In this document: positions 30,618 to 40,506 of the stretch, piece by piece
How the letters are laid out: every line of letters begins with the position of its first letter
Position numbering within the stretch: the stretch's first letter is position 1
Assembly (NCBI GenBank): GCA_963766305.1
Contig: CAVYAE010000071.1
Span: 19,054-83,053, forward strand
DNA from: an uncultured Bacteroidota bacterium
GTDB lineage: Bacteria > Bacteroidota > Bacteroidia > Bacteroidales > JAAUTT01
Direction of reading: 5' to 3'
DNA: 64,000 bases
Translations under genes and position numbers: made by a program
Notes under the pieces: model-generated
What the model saw: only the letters and a program-made list of their open reading frames with translations
Databases searched by the model: none
What the model was told of the DNA's origin: nothing

Positions 30618-31625
30618 TTAAATTGAGTTTAACATTGTTATACGTTCATTGTAATGTGTTATATAAAGTTTCTTTGTATCTTTATCAAGAAATGATTTTT
30701 TTACCAATTCCTCAACTCCTGATTGTTTATTAAGAAAAGGTTCTAGTAATTTATTAACCCTGTTTTCCTTTAAGCCAATTATCTTTCCAAATTCAATAAA
30801 ATCTTCTTTACATGGATGATGTTGGTCGTTTTTAATTCTACAGTCGGACCAATGCCACTCTTTAAATAAATCATTAGTTAAAGCAAAAAAACTTTCTTCT
30901 TCAACATGAATTCTGGTGTCCATAAGGTCGTAAGCAGGACTTAAAATATAATCGCCGTTACTTGTTTCAAGTATAGAAAAATTCTTCAAGTGAGCATCGC
31001 CATTTGAAAACAAAAAGTTGAAAACTACCAAACTATAAAATTTCTCCATTTCAATTTTCCAAGCTGCCACGTGTTGCATAATTAATTCGGCAATTTCTTC
31101 ATAAGAATAATCATATTTAAAATTAAGACCTGCATTTTCTTCTGTTTTACCTGCCAGTGATGCAAAGTCTTCTTTTCCCAATTTAACACCATTGGATACA
31201 ATATCAAAACGCCTTGTAATATATGCAGGTTCATCGTTACTAAAAAAGACTAACCCATTTTCTGCTGTAGTGATTTTATAAACCTGATTGGCTATTTGCA
31301 TGGTTACATGTTCATTAGCTGGTGCCATGTATGTTTTCTGTAACCCATGTGGTTTGGGTTTGAGAATATATGTGCCCTGTTCTTTTTCTTCAGTTAAACG
31401 AAGTCTATTTTTATCAAGTATTATCGAATACTTTTCCTGAACACCTGAAATAGAAATTCTTTTCATGTTTTGCATAAATTTTTTTTGGTCTCGCTCGTCA
31501 ATTTCAGGGGCATTATATGGTAATATGTGGCTAACCTTCCGCCCATCAAACATTCTTCGAACAAAAAGTGGGCTATACTCTGAAAATCCTTCCAATAGCA
31601 GTCCGGGGCAATTCTTTATTTCCAT
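30618..31625 (-). CDS. hipT: HipA-like Ser/Thr kinase lacking the N-terminal subdomain (HipT-type toxin)
   Basis: 335 aa; P-loop region RISISGVQEKYS, catalytic GDAHLKNFSIL, SPAYDL; N-terminal subdomain is encoded separately upstream. Confidence 0.75.
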   Translation of the reverse strand: MEIKNCPGLLLEGFSEYSPLFVRRMFDGRKVSHILPYNAPEIDERDQKKFMQNMKRISISGVQEKYSIILDKNRLRLTEEKEQGTYILKPKPHGLQKTYMAPANEHVTMQIANQVYKITTAENGLVFFSNDEPAYITRRFDIVSNGVKLGKEDFASLAGKTEENAGLNFKYDYSYEEIAELIMQHVAAWKIEMEKFYSLVVFNFLFSNGDAHLKNFSILETSNGDYILSPAYDLMDTRIHVEEESFFALTNDLFKEWHWSDCRIKNDQHHPCKEDFIEFGKIIGLKENRVNKLLEPFLNKQSGVEELVKKSFLDKDTKKLYITHYNERITMLNSI

Positions 31626-31636
31626 AGTATGAATCT

Positions 31637-31960
31637 CTAATTAATTTGCTTAACAGTTATTGCACCAATAGTATCGTATTGTGCTGTAGCCAATAACAAA
31701 CCAAAAAAATCCTTCTCATCAATTTTTAACAGTTTTGATTGGACTACCCTATTGGTTCCTTCGGAAAGCATGTTGTAAAAAAAAGGGAATAAGTGTTTGG
31801 AGGTATATTCTATTTGTTTTTTTGGTAATGTTAAGCTTATACCAGGCATTTTATTATCATTAAAATATGATACATCGTATTTAAAAACATACGAACCGCT
31901 GTCTGTTTCGAACAATATGCCAGCCAAAACTCCATTCCGGTAAATCTCAGCTTTTCTCAT
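31637..31960 (-). CDS. hipS: HipA N-terminal-subdomain-like protein (HipS-type)
   Basis: 107 aa; MRKAEIYRNGVLAGILFE...YVFKYD... resembles the N-terminal (couple_hipA) region of full-length HipA; sits between the HTH gene and the kinase. Confidence 0.7.
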   Translation of the reverse strand: MRKAEIYRNGVLAGILFETDSGSYVFKYDVSYFNDNKMPGISLTLPKKQIEYTSKHLFPFFYNMLSEGTNRVVQSKLLKIDEKDFFGLLLATAQYDTIGAITVKQIN

Positions 31961-32169
31961 TTATTTGGTTTTTTAAGTTCAAGTTTCAGTTCGAAACCTA
32001 ATACATCAGCAATCTTTTGGAGGTTACTCAAGGTAATATTTCCTTTGCCGCTTTCGAGCCTCTTTAAAGTTGCTATTCCAACTTCAGAAAGTTCTGCAAG
32101 GTAATCCTGATTTATTCCAAGGATATCCTTTCTTTCTTTGATAATCTTAATTATTTCTTCGTTTGTCAT
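31957..32169 (-). CDS. hipB: XRE-family HTH regulator (HipB-type)
   Basis: 70 aa; INQDYLAELSEVGIATLKRLESGKGNITLSNLQKIADVLG; 4-nt overlap with the next gene. Confidence 0.75.
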   Translation of the reverse strand: MTNEEIIKIIKERKDILGINQDYLAELSEVGIATLKRLESGKGNITLSNLQKIADVLGFELKLELKKPNK

Positions 32170-32188: not shown

Positions 32189-32204
32189 GTATCATTTGTG
32201 ATAC
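32189..32204. promoter_or_regulatory. palindromic operator candidate 1 (GTATCATTTGTGATAC)
   Basis: GTATCA-N4-TGATAC inverted repeat 20 nt upstream of the hipB start. Confidence 0.55.
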
Positions 32205-32248
32205 TTTTTGGTAAAGTTACTATGTTTTTACAAAAACGCGATATAATA

Positions 32249-32264
32249 GTATCATTTATGATAC
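32249..32264. promoter_or_regulatory. palindromic operator candidate 2 (GTATCATTTATGATAC)
   Basis: Same half-sites, 60 bp from site 1. Confidence 0.55.
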
Positions 32265-32309
32265 TAATTGAAATGATTAAGCGCTAAATAGCATGAAAAT
32301 GTAAGAATA

Positions 32310-32325
32310 GTATCATAAATGATAC
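32310..32325. promoter_or_regulatory. palindromic operator candidate 3 (GTATCATAAATGATAC)
   Basis: Same half-sites, 61 bp from site 2. Confidence 0.55.
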
Positions 32326-32604
32326 CGCAATGCAGCTAAATAAGTTTAAATAATTTATTGAATCATTAGAGTTTTCAACTTATAACTACTTCGATTTGAA
32401 GCCACATACAGGGCAATAATTAACCTGACTTCCGTATTCATCATTACCAGCCCAAAGCTTGCCTTCAGTATCTTCATAACAATATTTAATGGCTATGCCA
32501 TAGGCTTTATCGGGGTTGTGCAAATCGTAACGGTGTTTATCTGGTAACGAAAGGTTTACATATTTTAGTTAATCAAAGAAGTTATTTTCCATAGGTATCT
32601 GTTT

Positions 32605-32712
32605 TAAGGACAAAACTCGCCACATTTGCTGCAATACAAGCGGGCATCGTCAATAATTATTTTTACATACACCCTAAAGGTGTCGTTGCCGCATTTGTCG
32701 CAAATAACCATT
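32605..32712 (-). CDS. 35-aa CxxC...CxxC zinc-ribbon micro-ORF (possibly first piece of a decayed gene)
   Basis: MVICDKCGNDTFRVYVKIIIDDARLYCSKCGEFCP*; a second start-less frame downstream ends ...NYCPVCGFKSK*. Confidence 0.25.
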
Positions 32713-33251
32713 TCTTCCAAATAAATAAGTGAATGTTTTATTTTAAAAGTTTTAGAAGCTGATATTATTATTTTATCTTATAATAAAGGTTCTTAAATGT
32801 GTTTACAATTTTCTAACGTTTACCCTTTTATAATTCTTTGAGTTAATTCAGGAGAATTTCTTGCTAAATTACTTCCTATTTTAGCCTGTTACAGGATTAT
32901 TTTAGGACAATCTTTTTTTTAGGATAACTGAGATTAATTCCAAAATTCAAGTGGTAAAAATTTACGCATTAATGTTGGTATATTATAGACACCGCTAGTT
33001 ACCAAAATTTTTTCAAGTAGGCTATTTTACCAATTGTTATGTTTGAAATGTTAATTTATGTAATTAAGTGAAAATTAATTTATTTAATCTATTATTGTTT
33101 GGACTTTCTGTAAAAAATTATTATTATTGACAAAAAATCAATCGAAGTGTTACAGTTAACCATTCAAAGATGAGTAGAACCTGCTAAATTATTGTGTCTG
33201 TAAAATAGTTATCGTCAATATTAAAAAGAAATCTACAACTATCACAAGGTT

Positions 33252-35307
33252 ATGCCTTTAAATATTAGAATAAAAGGGAATCAAGATACTGAAGAATATA
33301 AAGACGCACTAACTCTTAAAGAAATATTTGTCAGAGATATTCCAAAAGGGATAAACGGAGATATTTTAATAATTTCAAATGCAACATTATTCGGGCAGGA
33401 GATTAAAGATATTGATTTAATAGTTTTAGGAAACTTTGAACGATATAATTTGTTTTTAGACTCAAAATCAATCAATTCAGAAAAAAAAGAATGTGAACTT
33501 AAAAACCGTAATATTTTTATTAATAATTTCTGTTTTGTAATAGAAACGAAACATCATCGTTCACAGGATGTTGTTTTGGATGGGTTGACTCTTTGTGTTA
33601 AATATAACAATAGACTTGCAGATGTCACGACTCAAAGCGAAAAGCAAAAATATTCACTAAAAAATTATTTTTGCGATAGAATAAATTCATCTCCATATAT
33701 ATGTAATTTCATCTGGCTTAGGAATGTAAGTCCAAATTCTCTGCGAGAATTAACTGGGACAGAACAGCATTTTACAATAAATAATAATTATTTATCTTCA
33801 GATTTTAATATCAAAAGGATTTTTCAACTTGCTTGTTTACAAAATTTTCCATTTACTCCTATAGATAAAAATACAAATCAAGAAAAAGGATATTCAGTCT
33901 ATAATTCTTTAAAAAAATTTAATGATAAATATGATATAAATGAAATGTATTCTATTTTTCAATTGTTTGAAAAAATTAAAAGTGGAACAGGTGATTTAAC
34001 GAGGAAAAAAATTGAATATATAACCAGAGATTTATTAAATACTCAACTATATGCTCAGGCTATTGGTCAAAAATTAGTTATTGTTAATGGAAGAGCAGGT
34101 ACTGGTAAAACAATCAAACTATTAACTATTGCTTGTAATTTAGCTATTGATAGAGGTGAGAGATGTTTGATTTTAACATATAACCATGCACTTGTAAGTG
34201 ATATTAAGCGTACTCTTGCATTAGCTGAAATTCCTAATCAAATTGACAATTATTCAATAAATATAATTACACTTCATAAATTTTTTTATGAGTTGATTCT
34301 TGGGTTTGGATTAGTTGAAGGTAAATACATCCCAGAATACCTTTCAAATTATTACCATTATATAGTAGAACTTACAAAACACATTGAAAGCGGTCTTATT
34401 GATGATAGAGACATTCAAGCGTTAATGAAAAACAGACATGATGAAGTAGCTTGGGATTATGTATTAATTGATGAATCTCAAGATTGGGATATCGTGAAAG
34501 AGATTTAATCTTCAAAATCTTTACCCACAAGAGAGTATTGATTACAGATGGAATTGACCAATTGGTGAGAACCCAATCTCATTGTAACTGGACAAAAGGA
34601 CTAAAACCTAATATTGATTTTCATTTAAAACAACCAGAAAGAAAGAGTTTAAGGCAAAAAGTAAATCTAATTAAGTTTGTTAACTCGTTTGCAAATGAAA
34701 TAGGTATTCAATGGAATATAGAACCAAAAGAAGAATTAATTGGTGGTAAAGTAATTATTTCAGTTAAACCATACAATAAAGAGTTGCACCAAAAGGAATT
34801 TTTTTATTGCAAGGAAAACGGTAATAGTCCTTATGAAATGATGTTTCTTGTACCACCTTCTCTCGTTGATAAAATAAAGTCAAGTGATGGAAAAGATGTA
34901 TTCCGCAAATTTAAGGATGAAGAAAAATTTAAACAAATGGGCATTCCGATTTGGGATGGAACAAACACAGATTTAAGAACCCAATATGTCGTTAATTTAG
35001 AAGAACATAGGGTTTTACAATACGATTCGTGCAGGGGACTTGAAGGCTGGACTGTTGTTTGTTTAGATTTGGATGAATTTGTTCGTTATAAAAAGGAAAC
35101 TTATGAGGTAATGGTAGAAGATGGTGAGTTAGCTTTGGAGACTGAAAAGAAAAAAAGAAAAGGTTTGTATATTTATGGGCATTAATTCCCTTAACAAGAG
35201 CCATTGATACATTGATAATTACTATTAATAATAGAGATAACGAAATTGGAAGTAAACTTTATAATATATATAATAAATATCCTGACTTTGTTGACTGGAT
35301 TGAATAA
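33252..35307 (+). pseudogene. NERD-like nuclease fused to SF1 (UvrD/RecD-like) helicase, Nhi-like; reading frame broken by two -1 shifts
   Basis: N-terminus DIDLIVLG...FVIETKHH (D...ExK); Walker A GRAGTGKT; motif II LIDESQDW at end of frame 1; frame 2 (34484..35185) carries DSCRGLEGW; frame 3 (35146..35307) carries LIPLTRAIDTLII (helicase motif VI); shifts at GGG 34486-34488 and A7 35150-35156. Confidence 0.65.
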
Positions 35308-35385: not shown

Positions 35386-36786
35386 ATGGAACTATTTTTG
35401 GATAATTTTAGAAGTTTTAAAAATCAAAATTTCAAATTTTCGAAGTTTAACATTTTAATTGGAGAGAATAGTTCTGGTAAAAGTAGTATTTTAAAGTTTT
35501 TTTTAATATTAAAGCAAAGTCTACAGAGTTTTCAAAGTAGGAGTGCAATAAATATTACGCTTCAAGGTGATTATGTAGATTTGGGAAATTATGAAGAAAT
35601 GATTTACTACCATGATTTGTCACAAACACTAACATTTTCATTTACTCTAGATTCTGATTATCCTCTGTTTTTTAAATCATATGTGACAAAAACCGAAAAG
35701 AGAAATATAAATTCAAAAAATGAAGATAATAATATTTTAGAAGTATACAGATTATTAAAAGATTATCCCACTAAAATATCTTTTTCTTTAAGTAAGGATT
35801 TAAAACAACACGACAATATTAAAACTATTATTTCGAATCCAAAATTAGGAAGTATTGAAATTGTTACAAAGTTAAATGAGAATAAAGAAATTGAAAATGT
35901 AATATCTTCAGATGCAATTTGTGATATTATATTTATAGACTTAGATAATAATAAAACTGAATACACAAATATTGAATATGAGAAGGATGCTTTTTTTTCA
36001 ATGGTTAAAGGTTATAGTTTAAATGAAAAATTTGATAAAAAATTTAGTGTAGATTTCTATCAAATAGCATATTTGTTAATAACTCAGAACTTTATTGAAC
36101 GCTTTGCCCAAAGAATTCAATTTATTAACCCGATTAATTCTGTTCCTAAAAGATTTTTATTTCGAAAAGACCCTTCTAGTAAATATATAAATTTAAATTT
36201 AGAAGAGTTGGTAAATATTTTATCCGATGAAACTCTGGATAAAATTAGTTCGGAAAAGTTAATTTCCAAAATTAATGAAGCTGTAAATTTTTTTGGTATA
36301 GCAAATGAAATAAAGATTAATAAAGACAATAAAATTCCTGTTGTTGAACTTAAAGCAAAAGTTAAAGATTTATGGAGTAATATTACAGATGTGGGTTATG
36401 GCACTTCTCTTCAACTTCCTATATTATTCCAAATAATATTATCAAACACGAAATCTGGTGGTGAAAATATATTAATTGAACAGCCTGAAGTTCATTTGCA
36501 CCCCAAACTTCAAGCACAATTTATTGAAACAATTTTAAAATTTGGTTTTAATAATAAATACTTCATTGAAACACATAGTGAACATATTGTTAGGAAACTT
36601 CAAATTATGGTTAAGAATAATATGTATGGAATTAAGCCTTCTGATATTACAATTCATTATTTTAGACGAGAAAATGAGGTTTCTCACGTAACATTTCATG
36701 AAATACTTTCTGATGGCAAATTAAATCCAAACTTTCCTTCAGGTTTTTTTGATTCTTCTTACTTATTAGCAAAGGAACTTTTATAA
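35386..36786 (+). CDS. ABC/AAA_21-type ATPase with DUF3696-like C-terminal tail, no fused nuclease domain
   Basis: Walker A GENSSGKSS, Walker B region ILIEQPEVHLHP, H-loop ETHSEHIV, tail NPNFPSGFFDSSY. Confidence 0.75.
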   Translation: MELFLDNFRSFKNQNFKFSKFNILIGENSSGKSSILKFFLILKQSLQSFQSRSAINITLQGDYVDLGNYEEMIYYHDLSQTLTFSFTLDSDYPLFFKSYVTKTEKRNINSKNEDNNILEVYRLLKDYPTKISFSLSKDLKQHDNIKTIISNPKLGSIEIVTKLNENKEIENVISSDAICDIIFIDLDNNKTEYTNIEYEKDAFFSMVKGYSLNEKFDKKFSVDFYQIAYLLITQNFIERFAQRIQFINPINSVPKRFLFRKDPSSKYINLNLEELVNILSDETLDKISSEKLISKINEAVNFFGIANEIKINKDNKIPVVELKAKVKDLWSNITDVGYGTSLQLPILFQIILSNTKSGGENILIEQPEVHLHPKLQAQFIETILKFGFNNKYFIETHSEHIVRKLQIMVKNNMYGIKPSDITIHYFRRENEVSHVTFHEILSDGKLNPNFPSGFFDSSYLLAKELL

Positions 36787-36796
36787 TTTTATTGTT

Positions 36797-37660
36797 ATGC
36801 AATTAAGTGTAGCATTGTTTTCCGACATTTTAGTTGAATACTTTAATAGTCGGAACAAATTTGACAAATCCATTATTGAATTTAATCTTCAATCAATTAT
36901 TGAGAATCCAAAAAATAAAATAATTGTAACAAAAGGTTATATTGACTTTCTTGAAACAATATTTAATAAGGAATCCCTGTATTATGACAGTTATACAAAT
37001 TTTTTTACAGAAATATTTGATAATGACCTAAAATGTGAGATACAAAAATTAACAAAAGCAGAAACTATTGAATCCGAGTTTGTAAATATGGCAAATAATT
37101 GTCAACATACAAGTATAGCAGTATCTATTAAAAACAAGGGGTTTACACTTCTAAACTATGTCTATATTGAGAATTATTATAATTGTTTGAAAACAAAACT
37201 TTTTATAGATATATTAAAGGATAGGAAACATATTTCAAGATATTCCGATTTTATTAGTAAATCTCAAATTGTAGAATTTTTCAATTCCTTGTATAATTTG
37301 CCAAGAAGAATTAATTCAGTTGTAATATTTGAAAGATATGCTAATGTTAATCATACTTATTTTGATTTTTTTAATGACCATAATATAGAAGTTAAATATT
37401 ATAAATTAAATGCATCTTTAGTAGATAGCTACGCATTAAAAAAGAAATTTAAAAAGGTAAGTCTATATAATACTTCAAATCAAGATTTGATTCATGAAAG
37501 GTCTATTATTTTTGATAATTTTGTAATAAATCTTGATGAAGACCCCTGTTATCTTGATGCAAATAGAAAAACTTGGACGATTGCTGTTGAATATTCTTCA
37601 AAAACTGTTAATGACTTAACAAATAAATGCAAAGATTTTAATAAAATGGCATGTGTATGA
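36797..37660 (+). CDS. uncharacterised 287-aa partner of the ATPase (C-terminal IHERSIIFDN motif)
   Basis: 10-nt gap after the ATPase stop; no TOPRIM, HNH or PD-(D/E)xK signature seen; H233-x-R-x4-D-N at 37493-37519. Confidence 0.5.
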   Translation: MQLSVALFSDILVEYFNSRNKFDKSIIEFNLQSIIENPKNKIIVTKGYIDFLETIFNKESLYYDSYTNFFTEIFDNDLKCEIQKLTKAETIESEFVNMANNCQHTSIAVSIKNKGFTLLNYVYIENYYNCLKTKLFIDILKDRKHISRYSDFISKSQIVEFFNSLYNLPRRINSVVIFERYANVNHTYFDFFNDHNIEVKYYKLNASLVDSYALKKKFKKVSLYNTSNQDLIHERSIIFDNFVINLDEDPCYLDANRKTWTIAVEYSSKTVNDLTNKCKDFNKMACV

Positions 37661-37699: not shown

Positions 37700-37993
37700 C
37701 TAATTAATAAAAAACGGAATCTCAGCAATTATCGATGTTTTACCAGCATTTTTATGTAAATCCTTATCTAAATTCATCAACACAAGTTCATCCAGTTTAG
37801 TACCTAATTTCCATTGGTCTTCTGCTTGTGCCAGAATGTAACCATTGTTTACTTTGATAATGGAACGAACAACTGGATTACCATCGTCATCCTGCTCTCG
37901 CTTAATTGTACCATGAAAAGTCCTGCTGAAATCGTTCCCCGGTTTTGCCATGAACAACTCAGTCATCTGGATTTTGGATTCTTTTTTCTTCAT
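37700..37993 (-). CDS. hypothetical protein
   Basis: 97-aa ORF convergent with the ATPase pair; no motif recognised. Confidence 0.4.
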   Translation of the reverse strand: MKKKESKIQMTELFMAKPGNDFSRTFHGTIKREQDDDGNPVVRSIIKVNNGYILAQAEDQWKLGTKLDELVLMNLDKDLHKNAGKTSIIAEIPFFIN

Positions 37994-38077
37994 ATTGTAA
38001 AATAAAAATGCAAATTAATAAACAATTAGCAGTAAATTAACGCTTTAAATTAAAAAAAGTTACATAATATGGGAAAA

Positions 38078-38455
38078 TTAATAATCGAAATCCAAAAGGT
38101 CATGTGGATTAATCTCAGCTTGCATTTCATCTACAACCATTTTTTTAATGTCTTGCCAATTAAGGAATAATATTCTTTGATTATTATTCTTTATATCTAC
38201 CTTGACATTAAATACTTGATTTGTTGTACAATCCAGTAGTTCCAAAATAATGTAATAGTCCTCAACGTTAAGGTTTTGTAGTTTAACTTTGAAAAACCCT
38301 AAGGGTGTAACCATTAAAAATTCATAATCTGATTTGACCCTCTTTTCCCTTGGTGAATGAAGGAATACCTGAAGGTTGTTAAATTTATCAGAATTCCTTG
38401 ACATTCTGTATATAAGGTCATCCACAGAATCATTTTTAATCCTTATATTTTTCAT
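38078..38455 (-). CDS. hypothetical protein
   Basis: 125-aa ORF; no motif recognised. Confidence 0.4.
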   Translation of the reverse strand: MKNIRIKNDSVDDLIYRMSRNSDKFNNLQVFLHSPREKRVKSDYEFLMVTPLGFFKVKLQNLNVEDYYIILELLDCTTNQVFNVKVDIKNNNQRILFLNWQDIKKMVVDEMQAEINPHDLLDFDY

Positions 38456-39601: not shown

Positions 39602-39659
39602 ATTTTATTCTGCAAATATAATTGTTTTGGGTTAATTATTATAAATTTCACCCTATCCC

Positions 39660-39851
39660 GCTTTTATACTTTCCTATTTTCCTACTTTACTGCTTTCTTA
39701 CTTTCCTGCTTTCCTACTTTCCTACTTTACTGCTTTCCTGCTTTCCTATTTTCCTGTTTTCATACTTTCCTGCTTTTATACTTTCCTGCTTTTATACTTT
39801 CCTGGTTTCCTTCTTTCCTTCTTTCCTAATTTTCTGCTTTAATACTTTAAT
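39660..39851 (+). repeat. 24 in-phase copies of a degenerate 8-bp pyrimidine-rich unit (consensus RCTTTCCT)
   Basis: Sequence partitions without phase slip into gcttttat actttcct attttcct actttact gctttctt actttcct gctttcct ... actttaat. Confidence 0.85.
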
Positions 39852-39936: not shown

Positions 39937-40506
39937 ATGGCAACTACAGCAGATTTAAAAAAGGGGTTATTTATGGAATTTAACAATGACATTTTTGTTG
40001 TTGTAGATTTTCAGCATGTTAAACCAGGTAAAGGTCCGGCATTTGTAAGAACAAAACTTAAGAGTTTAACTAACGGGAGGGTTATAGACAATACATTTAA
40101 TTCAGGTGTAAAATTGGATGTAGCCAACGTAGAAAGGCGTCCTTACCAGTTTTTGTATAAGGATGAGGCCGGATATAATTTCATGCACCAGGAGACTTTT
40201 GAACAGCTTTCCATGAGTGAGGAATTAATAAATGCTCCTAAGTTGCTAAAGGAAGGGCAGTATGTTGAAGTTATGTATCATGTTGACACAGATACTCCAA
40301 TGTCATGTGAGCTTCCTCCAATAGTTGATTTACTGGTTACCTATTCCGAACCGGGGGCCCGGGGCGACACAGCCTCCTCGAATGTTACCAAGCCTGCTAC
40401 ACTGGAAACAGGTGTTGTACTTCAGGTACCCCTGTTCATCAACGAGGGTGATAAAATAAGGGTAGACACAAGGGATATGTCTTATTATGAAAGATCAAAA
40501 GATTAA
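39937..40506 (+). CDS. efp: elongation factor P
   Basis: 189 aa; VKPGKGPAFVRTKLKSL and three-domain length typical of EF-P. Confidence 0.9.
   Translation: MATTADLKKGLFMEFNNDIFVVVDFQHVKPGKGPAFVRTKLKSLTNGRVIDNTFNSGVKLDVANVERRPYQFLYKDEAGYNFMHQETFEQLSMSEELINAPKLLKEGQYVEVMYHVDTDTPMSCELPPIVDLLVTYSEPGARGDTASSNVTKPATLETGVVLQVPLFINEGDKIRVDTRDMSYYERSKD

Follow-up and report, generated by a model that had tools for sequence, protein, structure and literature searches.

Menshen (NsnA-NsnB-NsnC), reportedly stemming from the work of Millman et al. 2022, is the described defence system most similar to the gene pair analysed here. The pair consists of an ATPase gene and, directly downstream, the gene of a smaller partner protein, and it lies in a stretch of 64,000 nucleotides (the window, as we call it below) from an uncultured Bacteroidota bacterium (assembly GCA_963766305.1, contig CAVYAE010000071.1, positions 19,054 to 83,053). 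A preliminary description had presented it as an undescribed defence pair. Menshen was dissected by Li et al. (Nucleic Acids Research, 2025; PMC12065111), according to whom it is composed of NsnA (ParB-DUF262 plus ParBDB), NsnB and NsnC. Their catalogue of 1,997 systems was built outward from DUF262 proteins. NsnA is the sensor in their model, its signalling to NsnB being left unexplained, and their AlphaFold 3 models of NsnB4-NsnC2 complexes place the inactive PIN-like domain (inPIN) docked between the DUF3696 tails. NsnA-less or two-gene pairs are apparently not discussed in that text, as judged by a phrase search. Another precedent is HEC-03, in which an ABC ATPase and a PIN protein make up a validated system of two genes, both needed for defence in E. 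coli (Payne et al., bioRxiv 10.1101/2024.01.29.577857).

In our interpretation, to which we assign a probability of about 0.62, the window pair is an autonomous module whose two genes are equivalent to NsnB and NsnC, the core of Menshen, and which works without NsnA. Probably, then, it is a known defence system in a variant form that lacks the sensor, and not a wholly new one. Our calls of open reading frames (ORFs) agree with the preliminary description in the coordinates of both genes and in the 10-nucleotide gap between them. The motifs it had quoted for the ATPase (Walker A, Walker B region, H-loop and the tail motif FPSGFFDSS, amino acids (aa) 450-458) can all be read in the sequence. Pfam assigns the protein to AAA_15 (3e-17), AAA_21 (2e-12) and DUF3696 (5.9e-8), all above gathering scores; the tail had thus been named correctly, and the same scan bears out that no TOPRIM or nuclease domain is fused to the ATPase. 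The "long low-complexity insert" between the ATPase halves has to be reinterpreted. It aligns across the family and is therefore not of true low complexity; it is the Insert region, a conserved part of ABC ATPases of the OLD type.

Among PADLOC models, the ATPase is matched best by NsnB of Menshen (3.6e-51, profile positions 5-336 of 345), followed by the HEC-03 ATPase model (1e-34), PDC-M55A (1e-33) and AriA (1e-25); the PtuA model also matches (1e-13). NsnB came first, and the HEC-03 ATPase second, in 40/40 family members tested. Throughout these 40 sequences, invariant residues fill the Walker A motif (G26, E27, N28, S29, G31, K32 and S34), the signature-motif position (D335, G337 and G339), the Walker B region (I364, E365, Q366, P367, E368, H370, L371, H372 and P373) and the H-loop (E395, T396, H397, S398 and E399). 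The family thus reads I-E-Q-P-E where a canonical Walker B would read hhhhD-E. Peculiarities of the same kind are reported for NsnB, in which GxG replaces SGG and E-N replaces the D-E of Walker B (PMC12065111). The E-Q dyad suggests slow hydrolysis, so that the ATPase may be less a motor than an ATP-bound switch. There is no solved structure among its close relatives, the nearest being PtuA, over the Walker B/H-loop region only.

The partner was resolved by structure prediction alone, all sequence-level library searches having failed. The window protein has no significant match in Pfam, PADLOC or NCBIfam, and no significant sequence-profile match to PLDc; searching the PDB sequences with a profile of its family gave no identification and did not recover MITD1. 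Neither the partner nor the ATPase matches Toprim, DUF4435 or HNH in Pfam or PADLOC. Word-indexed homolog search returned just two to three relatives of the partner, even with a profile, and an exhaustive HMMER search was therefore used. It revealed a family of 148 clusters at 50% identity, nearly all of them full-length proteins of 280-300 aa.

Conservation within this family was read from an alignment of 80 sequences whose mean identity to the window protein is about 25%. Despite this divergence, H233, R235 and W260 are invariant (80/80). E234 is found in 72/80 (90%), K277 in 91%, D247 in 84%, T259 in 84% and D249 in 78%. Position 179, glutamate in the window protein, is D in 82% and D or E in 86% (69/80), and the adjoining R180 is kept in 84%. 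The preliminary description had drawn attention to the sequence IHERSIIFDNFVINLD near the C-terminus. The sequence exists, at 37490-37537, one codon upstream of the 37493-37540 originally reported. Of the H-x-R-x4-D-N motif recognised in it, H233 and R235 have proved to be the invariant part, whereas D240 (14/80) and N241 (44/80) are not conserved; the conserved acidic residues lie instead at E/D179, D247 and D249.

The AlphaFold 2 (AF2) model of the whole partner, computed with the family alignment as input, has two domains (predicted local distance difference test score, pLDDT, 97.1; predicted template modelling score, pTM, 0.91). The N-terminal one, overlooked in the preliminary description, became visible in the domain model and in Foldseek comparison; modelled separately, it reached a pLDDT of 96. 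Its best PDB matches are PIN domains, namely VapC2 (3zvk, probability 0.97), Utp24, AF1683, Mtb VapC and SMG5. No acidic residue is invariant in this domain across the 80-sequence alignment, D10 being kept in 61%, and it is probably catalytically inactive and inPIN-like.

For the C-terminal domain, Foldseek against the PDB yielded at E <= 1e-3 only folds of the phospholipase D (PLD) superfamily: the C-domain of TrmBL2, Nuc (1byr), NucT (6ehi), Zucchini and PLD3/4, these with probability 1.00 and E values of 8e-6 to 1e-3, and furthermore BJ-TSA-9/FAM83 and PLD. PLD proteins of a viral structure library were matched as well. In the AF2 model, E179 follows directly after the second strand of the domain (174-178) and H233-E-R235 stands directly before the fifth (236-239). 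The PLD fold is thus present and the HKD motif (H-x-K-x4-D-x6-G-S-x-N) is not, the invariant R235 replacing its lysine. The earlier suggestion of a single-copy, MIT_C-type PLD-fold module has in this respect held good, AF2 and Foldseek placing the motif in a PLD-fold module of HxR type. The PB-PLD1 class of NsnC has been described in similar terms, with a conserved D/E after beta-2 and HDR before beta-5; it is structurally similar to NucT and is likened to MIT_C, a type of module reported for BREX, in its protein BrxL, and for eukaryotes, in MITD1 (PMC12065111).

Table 1. Positions of the two genes, of their domains and conserved motifs, and of neighbouring features in the window.
Feature	Position	Strand	Basis
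ATPase ORF, 466 aa	35386..36786	+	ORF call
Walker A GENSSGKSS, aa 26-34	35461..35487	+	sequence
Signature-motif position DVGYGTS, aa 335-341, G-x-G for canonical SGG	36388..36408	+	
Walker B region ILIEQPEVHLHP, aa 362-373, E-Q for canonical D-E dyad	36469..36504	+	
H-loop ETHSEH, aa 395-400	36568..36585	+	
DUF3696 C-terminal tail, aa 416-456	36631..36753	+	Pfam PF12476, 5.9e-8
Partner ORF (NsnC-like putative effector), 287 aa	36797..37660, stop codon included	+	ORF call, 148-cluster family, synteny, AF2
N-terminal PIN-like alpha/beta domain, aa 1-143	36797..37225	+	AF2, Foldseek
C-terminal single-copy phospholipase-D-fold domain, HxR type (PB-PLD1/MIT_C-like), aa 144-287	37226..37657	+	
E179-R180, just past beta-2 of PLD-fold domain	37331..37336	+	alignment, AF2
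H233-E234-R235, putative catalytic motif, right before beta-5	37493..37501	+	alignment, AF2
D247-E-D249, acidic pair past beta-6	37535..37543	+	alignment
T259-W260	37571..37576	+	alignment
NERD-like + superfamily 1 (SF1; AAA_19/UvrD-type) helicase, three frame segments	33252-35307	+	Pfam
HipBST-like tripartite toxin-antitoxin (TA) operon	30618-32169	-	
HTH_3 protein of HipBST-like operon	31957-32169	-	
Couple_hipA/HipS-like protein of HipBST-like operon	31637-31960	-	
HipA_C/HipT-like kinase of HipBST-like operon	30618-31625	-	
IstB-like IS21 helper ATPase, C-terminal fragment, 103 aa	29828-30139	-	

Physical association of the two genes was examined in other genomes. Four relatives of the ATPase that were looked up have an unannotated ORF of about 285-300 aa directly downstream and unrelated genes upstream, and these downstream ORFs align with the window partner and keep I-H-E-R. 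Screening the representative genomes of GTDB with a profile of the ATPase yielded 79 loci, in which ORFs were called and searched with hidden Markov models of both families; the set was anchored on the ATPase, the partner alignment being too divergent as a query. Forty-seven non-redundant loci, including the window and the four relatives just mentioned, have an ATPase scoring above 440 bits. The partner follows directly downstream on the same strand in 42/47, and the distance from ATPase stop to partner start is most often -1 nucleotide and falls between -4 and +10 in 40/42. The five exceptions, due to a contig end (L034), an N-masked stretch (L049), a truncated partner (L041, L053) and loss (L035), are not alternative architectures. 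With 148 partner clusters and this degree of synteny, the pair is far beyond chance, and the conserved module of ATPase and small partner foreseen in the preliminary description is real.

The cassette is found mainly in Bacteroidota (Flavobacterium, Chryseobacterium, Pedobacter, Niastella, Aquimarina), and furthermore in Ignavibacteria, Acidobacteriota and one metagenome-assembled genome (MAG) of Janthinobacterium. More distant ATPase loci (L055-L086, below 175 bits) contain no gene of the partner family, and the plasmid and phage collections that were searched yielded no partner homologs. All-vs-all clustering of the other ORFs within about 5 kb of the 47 loci revealed no third conserved gene, the next cluster being shared by four loci. 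In the 46 loci other than the window, no gene is conserved upstream of the ATPase and no DUF262 gene is adjacent to it; DUF262 is not among the 25 most frequent Pfam families of the nearest neighbours. The DUF262-type motif DGxQR, also in the relaxed form DGx[QHK]R, does not occur in any frame of the 64-kb window. As a separate observation, distant matches to the DUF3696-type ATPase in three Actinomycetes MAGs (L076, L082, L083) lie inside ORFs of 700-970 aa, and in L076 and L082 these ORFs include a DGxQR (DUF262-like) motif as well, a hint of ParB-DUF262-ATPase fusions.

How far the pair agrees with Menshen can now be stated. Its ATPase is an OLD-type ABC ATPase with the DUF3696 helix by which NsnB is recognised, with a GxG signature and with a non-DE Walker B. 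In layout, the partner probably corresponds to NsnC, with a putatively inactive PIN-like N-domain followed by a C-terminal effector, and judging from its model it plausibly shows both features by which an NsnC is recognised; in fold and residue geometry, its effector agrees with the published description of PB-PLD1. Gene order (ATPase, then effector) and fast evolution of the effector are shared as well. On the other side, no NsnA is present in the window or adjoining the pair in the 46 related loci. NsnA, a ParB-DUF262 protein encoded directly upstream, defines Menshen, and so the pair is not Menshen by definition. Smaller differences are HER in the partner versus HDR in PB-PLD1, E-Q versus E-N in Walker B, an ATPase that exceeds the 345 positions of the NsnB profile by about 120 aa, and a partner lacking a sequence-level match to any PADLOC model. 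Though it falls outside the definition of Menshen, the pair most likely works like its core.

Like the pair, HEC-03 consists of two genes, those of an ABC ATPase and a PIN-domain protein, and lacks a third gene for a sensor; the window ATPase matches the model PDLC04148 ("HEC-03B") over its full length (E = 1e-34). (PADLOC labels this ATPase model HEC-03B, whereas in the preprint the ATPase is HEC-03A and the PIN protein HEC-03B.) The HEC-03 effector, however, is described as a VapC-like PIN and is presumably active, whereas in the PIN-like domain described here, to which a PLD domain is fused, no acidic residues are conserved. A member of HEC-03 should match its models with both proteins; the partner and 80 members of its family match none, and NsnB is the better match of the ATPase.

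The general logic noted in the preliminary description, that of an ABC ATPase joined with an effector as in PARIS and Septu, applies to the pair. In PARIS (AriA-AriB) and Septu (PtuA-PtuB), too, a small nuclease is bound to an oligomeric ABC ATPase, whose state controls it. Their nucleases are of other kinds, AriB being Toprim/DUF4435 and PtuB being HNH, not PIN plus PLD; they have no DUF3696 tail, and their sequence similarity to the pair is limited to the ATPase motifs. A Toprim/DUF4435 or HNH domain, as partner or fused, which would indicate PARIS, Septu, Gabija or OLD, was not found. "Undescribed" was therefore too strong a word for the pair: the ATPase is NsnB-like, the partner architecture fits the published PB-PLD1 type of NsnC, and HEC-03 is a two-gene precedent. 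What remains new is the consistent absence of NsnA, together with a coherent, mainly Bacteroidota NsnA-less clade and an effector family that the annotation libraries have missed.

A single-copy PLD module represents half an active site, and Nuc, NucT and Zucchini act as dimers. The partner resembles these proteins, as well as PLD6 and the MIT_C domains of MITD1 and BrxL, in having the same fold and a single half-site motif in each chain, so that two copies would have to come together to form an active site. It differs from the single-domain PLD nucleases by R in place of K, by the lack of conservation of the HKD aspartate and of the GSxN asparagine, and by the fusion of its PLD domain to a PIN-like domain in a protein paired with an ATPase. 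The HxR variant is common to it and MIT_C, according to PMC12065111.

Putting these elements together, we propose the following mechanism. The ATPase would oligomerise and grip the inPIN domain of the partner between paired DUF3696 tails, keeping the effector an inactive monomer. Contact between ATPase and effector, with the tail as predicted docking site for the partner N-domain, is suggested by the published AlphaFold 3 models of NsnB4-NsnC2. As there is no NsnA, sensing would have to fall to the ATPase inserts or to the hypervariable PIN-like domain; one of these would perceive an infection cue, and the ATP-bound state would change. The effector might then be released or rearranged, its half-sites, each with one H-x-R, pairing into a composite active site. 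Activation by release and dimerisation is conceivable by analogy with the Nuc and Zucchini dimers and with the release of AriB in PARIS. With a PLD module being half an active site, holding it as a monomer and releasing it on a cue would make a simple switch. The assembled site would cleave nucleic acid (DNA or RNA), stopping phage replication or aborting the infected cell.

This may be generalised. The DUF3696 ATPase and the inPIN-effector could be an immune module sufficient in itself, sensing infection with no ParB-DUF262 protein, Menshen being this core with an added DNA sensor; the clade described here, with its HxR PLD effector activated by release and dimerisation, would then be a distinct family missing from the catalogues. 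We advance this wider proposal tentatively, rating it slightly below an even chance.

Several observations weigh against our interpretation of the pair. At the level of sequence, 80 members of the partner family matched no PADLOC model, those of NsnC and HEC-03 included, and Pfam MIT_C was touched by just one of the 80 (E = 0.059) and by the window protein not at all. The PIN similarity of the N-domain is weak (E 0.03-0.5, TM about 0.5). For the C-domain, the top Foldseek match, TrmBL2, is a non-catalytic PLD-like domain, and MITD1 is not among the best 50 PDB matches, which leaves nuclease catalysis by the HxR module putative. Genes flanking the cassette in the 46 loci are mostly housekeeping ones (RecA, CPSase, LptF/G, glycine cleavage), with few defence neighbours (Type I methyltransferase, AbiEi, PDC-S46, mad2/PglX), and guilt by association is consequently weak. 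For this clade, a defence function is predicted from homology to the ATPases of Menshen and HEC-03, which are validated systems.

Some of these points are accommodated by the possibility that the pair is a defence system whose PLD-fold domain is a non-catalytic module binding nucleic acid, a membrane or another ligand, as in TrmBL2/TrmB and, originally, MITD1. The output would then come from elsewhere, for example from ATPase-driven sequestration or recruitment of a host factor. Such a role would agree with the non-enzymatic C-domains of TrmBL2 and TrmB as top structural matches, with H-E-R instead of the catalytic H-x-K, and with the missing conservation of D and N of HKD; Li et al. themselves call the enzymatic activity of HDR-type MIT_C domains a hypothesis (PMC12065111). 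Yet in a family of about 25% mean identity, no substitution is seen at H233, R235 or W260, and D/E179, D247 and K277 are kept in 84-91% of proteins, a pattern pointing to an active site rather than to a binding surface. The catalytic Nuc, NucT, Zucchini and PLD3/4 are strong matches too, and bona fide nucleases hold the same position in NsnC of Menshen (PMC12065111). We therefore consider a purely binding role unlikely.

Comparison of sequence identity between the two genes bears on the question of an immune function. In 41 intact ATPase-partner pairs, median pairwise identity was 41.6% for the whole ATPase and 52.9% for the DUF3696 tail, its most conserved part, as against 20.2% for the N-domain and 25.9% for the C-domain of the partner. 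The partner thus diverges about twice as fast as the ATPase, its PIN-like half most of all. Divergences of ATPase and partner are correlated (Spearman 0.46 for the N-domain, 0.60 for the C-domain), which shows that the two genes are co-inherited. Fast divergence of a co-inherited partner is the pattern that would be expected of an arms-race effector, and hypervariability of NsnC has been attributed to an arms race (PMC12065111).

It is this divergence, among other things, that makes a function outside immunity improbable. The pair could be a housekeeping or stress-related couple of ABC ATPase and phosphodiesterase, engaged for example in DNA repair or RNA turnover, or a selfish, TA-like addiction cassette. 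The predominance of housekeeping genes and scarcity of defence genes around the cassette, the lack of homologs on plasmids and phages in the collections searched, and the service of RecF, RecN and Rad50, ABC ATPases of the same superfamily, in repair would all suit such a function. However, the closest profiles are all of defence ATPases (NsnB, HEC-03, PDC-M55, AriA), and the flanking genes differ from genome to genome and are unrelated. The window cassette itself shares an island of low GC content with HipBST-like TA genes, an IS21 remnant and the NERD helicase. Most validated HEC systems, moreover, likewise show no enrichment in the vicinity of known defences (Payne et al., bioRxiv 10.1101/2024.01.29.577857).

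A canonical Menshen that has lost NsnA and decayed into a non-functional remnant is very hard to reconcile with the data. Sporadic domain loss and pseudogenisation are mentioned for Menshen (PMC12065111), and the frameshifted helicase next to the pair testifies to local decay. Both ORFs of the pair are nevertheless intact and keep the invariant functional residues in both proteins, and the NsnA-less layout is shared by 42/47 loci in Bacteroidota, Ignavibacteria, Acidobacteriota and the Janthinobacterium MAG; on account of this recurrence of the two-gene layout across phyla, we rejected the idea. A three-component system including the upstream NERD/SF1 helicase, a cooperation considered in the preliminary description and least credible of all, is favoured by the common strand, by the distance of about 80 bp between the repaired helicase stop and the ATPase start and by weak PADLOC matches (GajB 3e-6, "NERD+UvrD" 1e-5), but it was rejected on synteny, since no helicase stands beside the pair in any of the 46 other loci (0/46) and no other gene is conserved upstream there, while the window helicase needs two frameshift repairs and promoter-like sites occur in the gap before the ATPase, although a promoter/terminator scan found no more of them than in shuffled sequence.

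Our interpretation of the pair as an NsnA-less core module has several implications. If the pair alone protects, NsnA, the proposed sensor, would be dispensable to the NsnB-NsnC core of Menshen, which bears on the question left open in the 2025 Menshen paper, namely how NsnA signals to NsnB and what triggers the system. In the same case, at least 148 clusters missed by Pfam, PADLOC and NCBIfam would join defence annotation, especially in Bacteroidota. The invariant H-E-R/W site would offer a clean test for catalysis by single-copy PLD modules of HxR type, and would be the first tractable case for deciding whether MIT_C-type PLD domains, such as those of BrxL and human MITD1, are enzymes. If, on the contrary, the pair does not protect, homology of the ATPase would be shown to be insufficient ground for annotating pairs of DUF3696 ATPase and PLD protein as Menshen.

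The surroundings of the pair in the window deserve a short description. The helicase gene is restored by two frameshift repairs, one near 34490 and the other in a poly-A run near 35150-35165. Its repaired end at 35307 corresponds to the stop deduced in the preliminary description, and its repaired C-terminus contains a motif-VI-like LTRAIDTLIIT. The gene is either a pseudogene or a carrier of homopolymer sequencing errors. GC content is 25-30% over approximately 32-40 kb of the window, and an extracytoplasmic function (ECF) sigma factor gene is also found around the pair. Low GC, the HipBST-like genes and the insertion sequence (IS) remnant support an acquired island in the window. The defence-island context proposed earlier holds for this window alone, the cassette lying elsewhere mostly amid housekeeping genes. 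One of the few clear defence neighbours is in the related metagenomic locus L001 (9938-12649), where the cassette is about 1.6 kb away from a CBASS-like pair of patatin and SMODS/DncV-like nucleotidyltransferase.

The low-GC island has the IstB/IS21 remnant as its left-hand marker. Directly upstream of the HipB-like HTH gene, three GTATCA-N4-TGATAC palindromes stand at 32189, 32249 and 32310 (region 32189-32325, spacing about 60 bp); they are probably operator sites. Short ORF fragments rich in Cys pairs and zinc-ribbon-like, e.g. CDKCGNDTFRVYVKIIIDDARLYCSKCGEF, occur on the minus strand at 32480-32800, within the 1.1-kb "empty" region upstream of the helicase, and may represent a decayed small gene. 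Right downstream of the pair, at 37700-38455 on the minus strand, there are two small ORFs of 97 aa and 125 aa that have no family matches and are not conserved beside the pair in other genomes. Finally, a tandem array with an 8/16-nucleotide unit, TCCTGCTTTCCTACTT, in about 12 copies with 79% match, occupies 39656-39848 just upstream of efp (39937-40506); the TCCTGCTTTCCTACTT array yields spurious plus-strand ORFs of the "FLLSCFP" type.

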